IMG/VR virus record: IMGVR_UViG_3300022744_000036
Coordinates: 1 to 53,851 of that record
Length of the DNA stretch: 53,851 nucleotides
Source of the DNA: a virus
Lineage: Duplodnaviria; Caudoviricetes
Reading direction: 5' to 3' (one strand)
This document shows positions 2 to 1,534 of the stretch, piece by piece. Made by a program: the position numbers and the translations under genes. The first letter of the stretch is position 1; the number at the start of each line of letters is the position of its first letter. Under the pieces are notes generated by a model that searched no databases, was not told the DNA's origin, and was given only the letters and a program-made list of their open reading frames with translations.

Positions 2-1534
2 CAGAAGAAGGCATACGACGAGATGCTGCGCAAGTTCCGCGCGGACTGCGGCAGCGGCCAGATCACGGCGGTCAACGAGGCGGCCAAGCTCAGCAAGCTC
101 CTGCAGATTTGCTGTTTGCGCCATGATACTAACGTGCTAACGGAACGCGGGTGGGTTCCGATACATGACGTGTCGGCACGCGACGCCGTCTGGGACGGCA
201 CCGAGTGGGTGAGCCAGAAAGGCGCAGCCCTAATGGGGTACAAGCCCACCATTGATTGTGGGGGTGTGTTTGCAACGGAGGACCACCTGGTTCTTAGCGA
301 CTCCGGGTGGCTAACAGCGAAGGAGTTTGCGCGCGGTTATGCCAGCAAAAGACTTGACTGGGCAGAGGTTCGGTTACCTGACGGTGTTGCGTCGGGAGGG
401 GACCTCTGGTGGGGTGAACAAGAAGGCTCGATGGGCGTGCCTGTGCGATTGCGGGAACGAGGTTACGCGCGAAAGCCAGTACCTACGCAGCCGGCACAGA
501 ACCCACCCCCGCAGTTGTGGGTGTCACCACGGAAACGAAAAGCACAAGATGGCGGCATCTCGCCCGTACCGAACGTGGACGGGTATGCGTCGGCGCTGCC
601 TAGACCCGTTGGACAAAGACTGGCCGAATTACGGCGCGCGTGGCGTGACGGTGTGCGAGTCGTGGCGCAGGTCTTTCTCGGCGTTTTGGGCGGATATGGG
701 ACCGAGCTACCAAGACAACCTGACCCTTGGCCGCGTGGACAACGACGGACCCTACTCACCCGACAACTGTCGATGGGAGACCGTGCACCAGCAGGCCAAC
801 AACCGAAGAACGAACACTCTGGTAGCCACATCAAAGGGTTCGATGACGCTGAGCCAGGCAGCGAGGGCTTTCGGCTTGAAGCCGGTCACGCTGCTGGCCA
901 GGATACGTCGCTACGGTTGGACGCTGGAGAGGGCGCTGAACACCCCGCCGTCTACGACCTCGTCGACTGTGGCCCACGAAATCGGTTCGTCGTCAGGGGC
1001 GTAGATGGCAAACCACGTATAGTCCACAATTGCGGCGTGGCCTACGGCGAAGGCGAGGCCGAGATCCTCCTGGATGCCCGCCCCCGCATCGAGCTGGTCA
1101 AGGAGATCATCGAGGAGAGCGAGTCCAAGGTGCTGGTGTTCGTGCCGTTCACGGCAGCACTGCACAAGGTAGCCGAAGAAATCGCCAAGCACTACTCGGT
1201 GGAGGTGGTGTACGGCGAGGTGTCCAAGACTCAGCGGGACCGCATCTTCCACGACTTCCAGCACGCCAAGGACCCCCACGTCCTGGTGGCCGACGCCCGC
1301 ACCATGAGCCACGGACTGAGCCTGACAGCGGCCAGCACGACCATCTGGTACGGCCCCCCTAACGGGAACGAGACCTATCTGCAGGCTAACGAGCGCACAC
1401 CCCGCCCGGGGCAGAAGCTCAATACCCTGATCGTCAACATCGAGGGCACCCCCGTGGAGCGCAAGGTGTACGAACGACTCCGAGGGCAGACCAAATTGCA
1501 GGGGCTGCTGCTCGACATGCTAAAAGGCGGTTGA
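2..1534 (+). CDS. SNF2-like DNA helicase, C-terminal part (5' truncated), intein-containing
   Basis: Frame is open from position 2. KLLQIC/CG-VAY motif, then helicase-C motifs [16 protein letters not shown] and [13 protein letters not shown]. Confidence 0.9.
   Translation, partial: [510 protein letters not shown]
113..1030 (+). mobile_element. Intein (306 aa) in the helicase
   Basis: Block A [13 protein letters not shown], block B TEDHLV, block F VYDL, block G IVHN followed by Cys+1. Removal restores KLLQICCGVAY. Confidence 0.92.
339..1004 (+). CDS. HNH-family homing endonuclease nested in the +1 frame of the intein
   Basis: [42 protein letters not shown] and [23 protein letters not shown] motifs. 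AAGGAG at 320-325. Confidence 0.88.
   Translation: [221 protein letters not shown]

Follow-up and report, generated by a model that had tools for sequence, protein, structure and literature searches.

Inteins are, in their textbook form, single-polypeptide fusions of a splicing domain with a homing nuclease. The locus described here raises the question of whether the two parts can also be kept as separate, overlapping genes, one read across the other in a different frame. It lies at the start of a tailed-virus record in IMG/VR (IMGVR_UViG_3300022744_000036), a linear virus record of 53,851 bp with a completeness of approximately 90% according to CheckV, the full length of which is hereafter called the window. 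A SNF2-type helicase gene opens the window, its 5′ end being lost at the contig start, and is interrupted by an insert of 306 codons, in which a second open reading frame (ORF) for a nuclease-like protein is nested in the +1 phase. We consider it very probable that the insert is a mobile class-1 intein whose homing nuclease is encoded by this nested +1 gene and is not a domain of the intein polypeptide; splicing, internal initiation and homing are what we infer from the sequence and the structural models.

Organization of the intein and its host gene

The helicase frame is uninterrupted from position 2 to its stop codon at 1532-1534 (+ strand), and the locus is composed of the following features:

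2 to 112, + strand: N-extein, the end of the first half of the SNF2-type helicase, with ...KLSKLLQIC as its last residues
113 to 1030, + strand: putative class-1 intein, 306 amino acids (aa) in the helicase frame (Cys1 ... T55-E-D-H58 ... D282 ... H305-N306)
113 to 397, + strand: Hint N-lobe, intein aa 1-95, with a predicted local distance difference test score (pLDDT) of 80-98 per 10-residue block (AlphaFold2)
312 to 314, + strand: TAA stop codon in the nuclease frame, formed by the intein L-T codons (cTA ACa), 8 codons before ATG 339
319 to 324, + strand: Shine-Dalgarno-like AAGGAG within the intein coding sequence
339 to 1004, + strand: nested gene, from ATG at 339 to TAG at 1002-1004, 221 aa, in the +1 phase relative to the intein frame
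398 to 934, + strand: intein-frame read-through of the nuclease gene, intein aa 96-274, Arg/Gly/Pro-rich, unconserved and predicted to be disordered
935 to 1030, + strand: Hint C-lobe, intein aa 275-306, a conserved block with a pLDDT of 96 (AlphaFold2)
1031 to 1534, + strand: C-extein, beginning with Cys+1 (CGVAYGE...) and containing Helicase_C

The borders of the insert are given by a Cys codon at 113-115 and a His-Asn pair at 1025-1030, which is followed by the Cys codon at 1031-1033. Its splicing motifs are TEDH (block B) and VYDL...HN, with D282 as the block F Asp, and an alignment of 29 members of the intein family showed that C1, T55, H58, D282, G287, H305 and N306 are invariant. Searches of Pfam and NCBIfam returned no match to the intein frame. 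When the AlphaFold2 model of this frame was used in a Foldseek search, however, the top matches were all inteins or Hint domains, including 6bs8 and 6riz (probability 1.00), the best being the Spirulina DnaX mini-intein (7cfv, E 4e-4). A first-pass annotation made from the letters alone had placed a complete Hint domain (Cys1, TEDH, VYDL...HN and Cys+1) and a +1 nuclease at exactly these coordinates (113-1030 and 339-1004), with both frames open; the motifs are all present, both frames are indeed open, and the Hint fold is recovered in the model.

With regard to the host gene, the C-extein matches Helicase_C (PF00271, E 8.4e-15) and the DNA helicase family phrog_62 (E 5.4e-32), and the N-extein aligns with intein-free helicases up to 'KLLQ(L/V)..'. 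The closest counterparts of this helicase in phages, found in Pseudomonas phage Rollin (44% identity over the C-extein) and in Rhizobium phage RHph_TM3_14A, have intein-free junctions that read 'KLLQLSL↓GAIYDE' and 'KLLQVAT↓GWVYDK', respectively, compared to 'KLLQIC↓intein↓CGVAYGE' in the window (arrows mark junctions). The alignment picks up again at the 'G(A/W)(I/V)YD' of these relatives, and thus the insertion is precise. Considering the family-invariant residues, the modelled Hint lobes, the Foldseek matches to inteins and the precise insertion, the insert is best assigned as a class-1 intein at the 'LLQxx↓G' linker of a phage SNF2-type helicase, from which it would be removed by protein splicing. 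A homologous intein is present at the identical helicase site in uncultured relatives (loci L003/L004 and L005). A megablast search of window positions 1-1600 against phage genomes gave zero matches.

The middle of the intein-frame product (approximately 180 aa) has pLDDT values of about 42-50, except for one helix at 62-73, and has no family match in Pfam, NCBIfam or PHROG, so that the in-frame nuclease domain of a canonical bifunctional intein was not found here. The layout of a split intein is likewise absent, as the intein frame runs unbroken from 2 to 1534. On the basis of the model, the product of 398-934 is predicted to serve only as an open linker. The earlier description of the central insert as junk holds for this unconserved, predicted disordered portion but not for the whole overlap, because both of its ends run into Hint lobes: at the start, ~20 nuclease codons share their DNA with a confidently predicted part of the N-lobe (pLDDT 80-92), and at the end ~19 codons do so with the conserved C-block.

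Selection on the two overlapping frames

Comparison of the window with the same-site relative L003 allows the two frames to be examined separately over the same DNA. Within the overlap, amino acid identity is 60% in the nuclease frame (substitutions at the three codon positions 69/61/115) versus 31% in the intein frame (111/67/61). In the flanking Hint blocks, the substitutions counted by intein codon position are 25/21/47 for the N-block (aa 1-66) and 8/6/19 for the C-block (last 27 aa). The phase of purifying selection therefore changes over at the borders of the nested gene, since the third-position peak belongs to the nuclease frame inside the overlap and to the intein frame in the Hint blocks. 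The comparison with L005 shows a similar pattern, with 52% identity in the nuclease frame versus 27% in the intein frame of the overlap. A frame-by-frame test of selection had been suggested in the first-pass annotation, and the two frames are set apart by both the identities and the switch of the third-position peak.

Although its amino acid sequence is poorly conserved, the intein frame of the overlap contains no stop codons. When the nuclease ORF was shuffled among synonymous codons, a mean of 5.7 intein-frame stops appeared, and none of the 400 shuffled sequences was stop-free. An intein-frame stop can originate solely where a T-ending nuclease codon precedes a codon starting with AA, AG or GA, here referred to as a risky junction. 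The use of T-ending codons at risky junctions and elsewhere is as follows:

Window: 0/49 at risky junctions; 30/175 (17%) elsewhere
33 distinct embedded +1 ORFs: 0/1846 at risky junctions; 22% elsewhere
8 free-standing homologues: 149/593 (25%) at risky junctions; 28% elsewhere
6 copies between split intein halves: 115/432 (27%) at risky junctions; 26% elsewhere

A total of 57 nuclease-like ORFs from the window and the other loci were tested by the same synonymous shuffling. In 43 of them, one alternative frame was free of stops, which in each case was that of the intein; for these embedded ORFs, 0 to 0.10 of the shuffled sequences, and mostly 0, were stop-free. The remaining 14 ORFs (the 8 free-standing controls and the 6 split forms) contain 2-44 alternative-frame stops, near the shuffled expectation with the exception of one low control. 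The nuclease frame is under purifying selection on its protein sequence, and the intein frame within the overlap is selected only to stay open, by means of the synonymous codons of the nuclease gene.

The nested nuclease-like protein

The 221-aa product of the nested gene matches two PHROG families annotated as HNH endonuclease (phrog_374, E 1.6e-55; phrog_3377, E 5.7e-49), and an HTH_psq match was observed in Pfam (E 0.011). In a large protein collection, 1764 homologues were detected at E<=1e-10, most of which are ~200-240 aa in length and have no Pfam domains save an occasional HTH_psq; 1109 phage records contain a match to the nuclease. The start of the nested ORF corresponds to the usual N-terminus of the family, and the ORF is of full length. 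Gene callers tend to shorten or skip this gene: the call in the window is a 139-aa protein from an internal Met, and P46 of APSE-1 is annotated with 140 aa (423 nucleotides (nt), L061:1931-2353), versus 216-221 codons for the conserved nested ORF.

The structure of the nested product was modelled by AlphaFold2 with confidence (mean pLDDT 91.2). Its domain plan comprises an N-terminal Zn-ribbon/small beta-barrel (C36, C38, C60 and C62), a beta-beta-alpha-metal core and a C-terminal helix-turn-helix, and the core residues are H69, R86, C87, C106, R132, Y139, N143, C144, W146 and N155. An alignment of 73 sequences contains 16 invariant columns (C36, C38, G39, C60, G61, C62, H69, R86, W109, F116, R132, Y139, N143, C144, W146 and N155), all of which are present in the window copy. 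A structure search independent of Foldseek placed the HNH restriction enzyme PacI first (3m7k_A; root-mean-square deviation 2.4 over 75 aa, model residues 70-159), with a Z score of 6.2, which falls under the caution line of 8 of the search tool. A profile search of PDB sequences gave a weak match to I-HmuI (E 0.14), in which 'LDRIDN..Y.P.NCRW....Q..N' of the nuclease is aligned with 'VDHKDGN....NLRW....N..N' of I-HmuI.

Where the first beta strand ends, the usual catalytic His is replaced by R132, which is Arg in all 73 aligned members. It is followed by the invariant Y139 in the loop between both strands, and there are Cys/His residues among the invariant positions as well. As described in the passage on group 20 in the classification by Jablonska et al. 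(2017, PMC5714182), PacI is a His-Me finger nuclease without the catalytic His, the role of which is taken by a Tyr of the omega loop, and the beta-beta-alpha-metal core of this subgroup has Zn-Cys sites on its flanks. The invariant R132 and Y139 would fit such chemistry. The nested protein may then be a PacI-like beta-beta-alpha-metal nuclease, with Y139 as a possible counterpart of the PacI Tyr. The first-pass annotation had recognized it as an HNH endonuclease; the PHROG families and the beta-beta-alpha-metal-like core agree with this, but with an invariant Arg in place of the usual catalytic His the designation HNH-like is more appropriate. Of the profile searches with both frames, those against PHROG matched the nuclease to HNH endonuclease families, whereas Pfam and NCBIfam returned nothing of the kind for either frame.

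Probable translation of the nested gene

The nested gene has its own start and stop codons, and the TAA at 312-314 closes its frame upstream, which agrees with the earlier proposal of a separate, out-of-frame gene in a contiguous intein. A nuclease-frame stop shortly 5′ of the start was found in 43/43 embedded ORFs, and in the nearest +1 relatives it is formed by the same conserved intein codons. In relatives, the starts are preceded at a distance of 4-11 nt by purine-rich, Shine-Dalgarno-like GAGG/AAGG sequences, which derive from the codons of conserved Hint residues ('H-E-V' or 'E/K-G-W'). The AAGGAG that the first-pass annotation had assigned to the nuclease is present in the window as well, but its spacing is not optimal (14 nt to ATG 339 and only 2 nt to TTG 327). 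Judging from these signals, the nested gene is probably translated by internal initiation on the helicase mRNA. It had also been proposed that expression of the nuclease is uncoupled from that of the helicase, which could apply only at the level of translation, as no promoter-like site lies inside the intein. The only promoter-like match in the first 1.7 kb is a sigma-70-like TTGATC-17-TATTAT at 1531-1559, which overlaps the helicase stop codon and extends into the spacer before the next gene (start 1584).

Distribution of the intein family in phages

A scan of IMG/VR with the intein alignment yielded 64 hits to the intein N-block in 58 loci (viral contigs), which fall into the following classes:

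44/64 hits: contiguous intein with a nuclease-like ORF in +1
6/64 hits: contiguous intein with a nuclease-like ORF in +2
6/64 hits: N-half closing after ~100 aa, with a nuclease gene downstream
4/64 hits: contiguous intein without a match to this nuclease (L038, 128 aa; L044 and L046, 251 aa; L058, 224 aa)
4/64 hits: only the first 26 aa in common, with a long insert of another kind (L054, L057, L059 and L060)
0/64 hits: nuclease in the intein frame

A LAGLIDADG-like motif was read by eye in the insert of L054 only. In isolate phages, the intein N-block was found in 193 records, 145 of which are from Salmonella phages. Among the five isolate records inspected, APSE-1, APSE-7, Shewanella phage SFCi1 and Caulobacter phage RLK have the +1 arrangement with inteins of near-identical length (about 300-308 aa), and Salmonella phage f18SE has the +2 arrangement. 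The best tblastn matches of the nuclease are located inside the DNA polymerase genes of SFCi1 and the APSE phages, where homologous Hint blocks in the polymerase frame flank an unconserved middle and the nuclease ORF is in +1.

The window nuclease is closest to copies at the same helicase site (60% identity to L003 and 50% to L005), and its identity to copies at PolA sites is 36-46%. Across 25 loci, Hint identity and nuclease identity are correlated with a Spearman rho of 0.48, computed over 300 non-independent pairs and without trees, which suggests that the Hint domain and the nuclease have been co-inherited. Since the same +1 phase is common to 44/64 hits and to the APSE, SFCi1 and Caulobacter phages, the merger of intein and nuclease appears to be old and the unit appears to move as a whole. 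The first-pass annotation had envisaged that a free-standing HNH gene invaded a mini-intein. The abundance of free-standing relatives fits such an origin, but this was no local accident, given an old merger and a shared unit. An in-frame fused nuclease was also sought among 35 longer proteins containing this nuclease, none of which has Hint blocks; the three that were examined (P0146, P0154 and P0134) are N-terminal fusions or repeats of the Zn-ribbon module and contain no inteins. A blastp search of the intein frame against 155 proteins gave a best E value of 0.21, a blank that constitutes weak evidence.

Several other forms of the family were observed. Six loci with fractured-looking polymerase genes (PolA at least in L013, L019, L021, L024 and L056) appear to contain split inteins with an HNH-like gene between the halves: L013:1287-2400, L019:1190-2300, L021:1190-2300, L024:1190-2300, L053:3001-4000 and L056:2827-3700. 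The intein N-half stops after 96-112 aa and is followed by the nuclease gene and then, in the third frame, by the C-half with the C-extein, the layout of L024 being given by its classification. A Met is present just upstream of the C-half in L019, L021 and L013, e.g., 'MKKLSAEEKANVRVEPVYDIVNCGPRHRFWANGKLVHN↓S...' in L019. The 128-aa mini-intein at L038:391-774 belongs to the same family and has no nuclease ORF; it is most simply explained as a deletion derivative, because 'GQRFGCLTV', a motif conserved at the N-terminus of the nuclease, can still be read in its +1 frame. A second conserved stretch, 'DRAKVRMPD', is no proof of a deletion, as it is also part of the confidently predicted Hint N-lobe.

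Two inteins of the family may occupy a single PolA gene, one with a +2 and one with a +1 ORF, as observed in L015 (1669-2526 and 3001-3918) and L016 (1624-2505 and 3001-3780). The point of insertion into the PolA motif YGGK(L)xEN shifts by one to four residues among L006-L025, L032, L001, L002 and L063, and the junction variants 'YGGK↓CVEN', 'YGGKL↓CEN' and 'xxEN↓C(C/T)Q' represent neighbouring, non-identical sites of one intein family. The window has its own PolA-like polymerase (51119-53065, 648 aa), which is without an intein at '...GPKATEN↓IVQALARD'. This motif is where relatives hold the intein family, and it would be an empty potential homing site in the same genome. In f18SE (L062:2501-3397), a related PolA intein is located at 'RQIGK..↓C...HN↓CE/GxG' and contains a distantly related nuclease-like ORF in +2, which starts very early, within the region coding for the Hint N-lobe, with an ATG derived from the 'VWDG' codons. 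Judging from this one record, Jersey-type phages of Salmonella and Escherichia coli appear to carry a related PolA intein with a +2 ORF.

Free-standing copies of the nuclease were found at L065:589-1197, L066:577-1218, L006:6040-6765 and L036:962-1939. In three of these four loci, the copy is near a replication gene: in Streptococcus phage Javan273 it lies upstream of a DNA helicase, in Ralstonia phage RP12 near the DNA polymerase, and in L006 ~2 kb downstream of an intein-bearing PolA. The copy in L036 is upstream of an intein-bearing gene. Proximity to replication genes would be consistent with nucleases that target such genes.

Beyond the window, these forms raise a broader proposition, which we consider as likely as not: that they belong to one intein lineage, large, old and not described so far, which resides in the replication genes of phages (those for PolA and SNF2 helicases) and in which the nuclease, a His-less PacI-like enzyme, is never in the intein frame within the sample, out-of-frame nesting is kept stable by selection on synonymous codons, and all stages coexist. 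Its members would include APSE, Jerseyvirus, Caulobacter and Shewanella phages and dozens of uncultured viruses, and the stages found side by side are the free-standing gene, the +1 and +2 nested genes, the split intein with the gene between its halves, and the mini-intein that keeps the first motif of the nuclease.

Alternative explanations

A number of results weigh against the interpretation of the locus as an intein with a nested, functional homing nuclease. The nested product has no match to a Pfam or NCBIfam nuclease model at E<=1, a Foldseek search of its model against the PDB returned nothing at E<=1e-3, and the matches to PacI and I-HmuI scored as low as noted above. Apart from the replacement of the catalytic His by R132, the residue beside it, an Asp in most members that corresponds to the Asp just before the I-HmuI catalytic His, is Gly in the window copy and in a further 15 rows of the 73. 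At the level of expression, the gap between the Shine-Dalgarno-like sequence and the ATG (14 nt) is longer than in relatives, a scan of 1-1700 found no promoter-like site inside the intein, and RNA structure at the nuclease start is not unusual (z 0.58). Finally, the helicase gene is cut at its 5′ end by the contig end, which limits judgement of its integrity.

The alternative that survives best, though we regard it as improbable, is that the nested ORF is a relic, the intein being fixed and splicing without an active homing enzyme while the ORF decays or is kept as a DNA-binding protein. This would account for the absence of the canonical catalytic His, the Gly found in the clade of the window where most members have Asp (16/73 rows), the lack of a Pfam HNH match and the suboptimal 14-nt spacing, and the 128-aa mini-intein L038 shows that an intact intein can do without a nuclease. 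However, a decaying gene would hardly retain all 16 family-invariant residues in a full-length ORF with the usual start, and the third-position pattern and the 60% identity to L003 indicate ongoing purifying selection in the nuclease frame. The change from His to Arg is family-wide, including the 1764 mostly free-standing homologues, and hence is no mark of decay; PacI works without that His.

Programmed frameshifting is much less credible. Ribosomes would shift into +1 after the Hint N-lobe and back before the C-lobe to produce a canonical bifunctional intein, for which the two open frames and the +1 offset conserved in 44 loci could be cited. Such a shift would have to take place within the 8 codons between the TAA at 312-314 and the ATG, another one in the opposite direction would be required near 940-1001, and no RNA structure was found at the start. 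Moreover, each of the 43 embedded ORFs has its own start codon after such a stop, and independent translation is also favoured by the +2 class and by the split forms, in which the nuclease is clearly encoded by a gene of its own.

It is equally hard to accept that the insert stays unspliced, i.e., that the helicase tolerates a 306-aa loop with vestigial Hint-like ends, as proposed for the ShiLan insertion. Out-of-frame HNH insertions without a splicing domain are indeed described for phage methylases in passages of PMC11855218. In the present family, however, every catalytic intein position is invariant in 29 members, both lobes are confidently predicted and match solved inteins, the substitution pattern of the lobes reveals purifying selection on the intein frame, and the insertion lies in a conserved linker motif of the helicase. 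That two compensating indels in what is a single metagenomic virus contig mask an ordinary in-frame HNH intein can be practically dismissed, as the same offset and a similar intein length recur in the isolates APSE-1/-7, SFCi1 and RLK and in 44 viral-contig hits with none in frame, and codon-level stop avoidance (0/49; pooled 0/1846) could not have arisen had the intein frame never been read in this phase.

Proposed mechanism and significance

According to the preferred reading, that of a class-1 intein with a nested +1 homing nuclease gene, ribosomes translating the helicase would cross the nuclease gene in the wrong frame and produce an unstructured linker of ~180 aa between the Hint halves, which would fold together and excise the whole insert to give ...KLLQIC-CGVAYGE.... 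Other ribosomes would begin at ATG 339 on the same mRNA, past the AAGGAG built from intein codons, and produce the predicted 221-aa PacI-like beta-beta-alpha-metal nuclease with its Zn-ribbon and helix-turn-helix. In mixed infections, this enzyme would cleave helicase alleles that lack the intein, close to the insertion site, and the whole unit would be copied in during repair.

A separate, overlapping nuclease gene supports the view of intein origin in which the splicing domain came first and the nuclease invaded later, and the locus provides an example of a protein-coding frame that can be selected merely for openness. If the broader proposition is true, the lineage would provide a natural series for testing the origin of split and bifunctional inteins. 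As the family is common in cultivable isolates (Caulobacter phage RLK, Jersey-type phages of E. coli and Salmonella, and APSE), translation, homing and split-intein formation could be tested directly. There is also a practical aspect, in that gene callers shorten or miss the nested gene and the nuclease family has no Pfam model.

Comparison with known systems

It had been cautioned from the beginning that similar architectures might already be reported in other phages, and out-of-frame intein nucleases are indeed in print for other nuclease families (papers from the Gogarten laboratory, 2025-2026, and Gorbalenya 1998 as cited in them). In the relevant passages of their preprint, Gosselin, Arsenault and Gogarten (bioRxiv 10.1101/2025.01.02.630785) describe inteins with the homing endonuclease in another frame or on the other strand and propose invasion of the intein by a free-standing nuclease gene. 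Those inteins resemble that of the window in being contiguous, with the nuclease as a separate ORF between the splicing blocks and an unstructured intein-frame reading. They differ in that the nuclease described there is endonuclease VII-like, in 'frame 3' of the same strand, and the host genes encode DNA polymerase, minor capsid protein, terminase and thymidylate synthase of actinobacteriophages, whereas the window has a His-less, PacI-like protein with a Zn-ribbon and a helix-turn-helix, in +1 of a helicase gene of a proteobacterial-type phage; this comparison covers those passages of the preprint, with its supplementary DNA-polymerase cases outside it.

A cyanobacterial dnaX intein with an out-of-frame LAGLIDADG nuclease was reported by Phillips, DeSimone and Gogarten (bioRxiv 10.64898/2026.09.14.751524) together with frame-specific ratios of nonsynonymous to synonymous substitution rates (dN/dS); according to the passages concerned, the authors favour secondary invasion, and mini-intein alleles coexist. 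The likeness to the window lies in an overlapping nuclease ORF under purifying selection with the intein frame relaxed in the overlap, and the differences, as far as those passages go, are the LAGLIDADG fold, the cellular host gene and the other phase. Neither the abstract nor section 17 of that study, nor the passages of it that were searched, refer to a codon-level test of stop avoidance.

Among phages, the DNA polymerase P45 of APSE-1 contains a homologous intein (28.5% identity over 306 aa) with the nested +1 nuclease P46 (~40-42% identity), which is annotated as 'HNH endonuclease' inside P45 in RefSeq NC_000935. However, the host gene is PolA, and the annotation of P46 begins at an internal ATG (423 nt), compared to 216 codons from a GTG for the conserved ORF. 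Intein loss among APSE phages is noted in a passage of PMC7313666, and full-text literature searches found no paper on APSE-1 P46 as an out-of-frame homing nuclease. The same type of search did not find the lineage itself (PacI-like +1 nuclease, helicase or PolA host, proteobacterial-type phages), with supplementary tables of preprints lying outside its reach.

Two further systems share part of the architecture. In the passages of Arsenault et al. (2025, PMC11855218) on the ShiLan domain and Pacc40 gp60, an out-of-frame HNH-like ORF lies in a phage methylase gene that is kept open, and the predicted Pacc40 structure is compared with PacI. According to these passages, the methylase insertions lack a splicing domain and presumably remain part of the protein, whereas in the window a complete Hint domain lies around the insert. 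Fractured genes in which the halves of a split intein are separated by a free-standing endonuclease are attributed to Dassa et al. (2009), and this layout is shared by L013, L019, L021, L024, L053 and L056 with the present nuclease family; the window intein is contiguous and has no stop.

The architecture itself is therefore known, and the window intein belongs to a recently described and still rare kind. Specific to this family are a nuclease that is never in frame, stop avoidance that is visible at the codon level, and the coexistence of split and mini forms, and it is because of this family context that the locus is of higher value for specialists.

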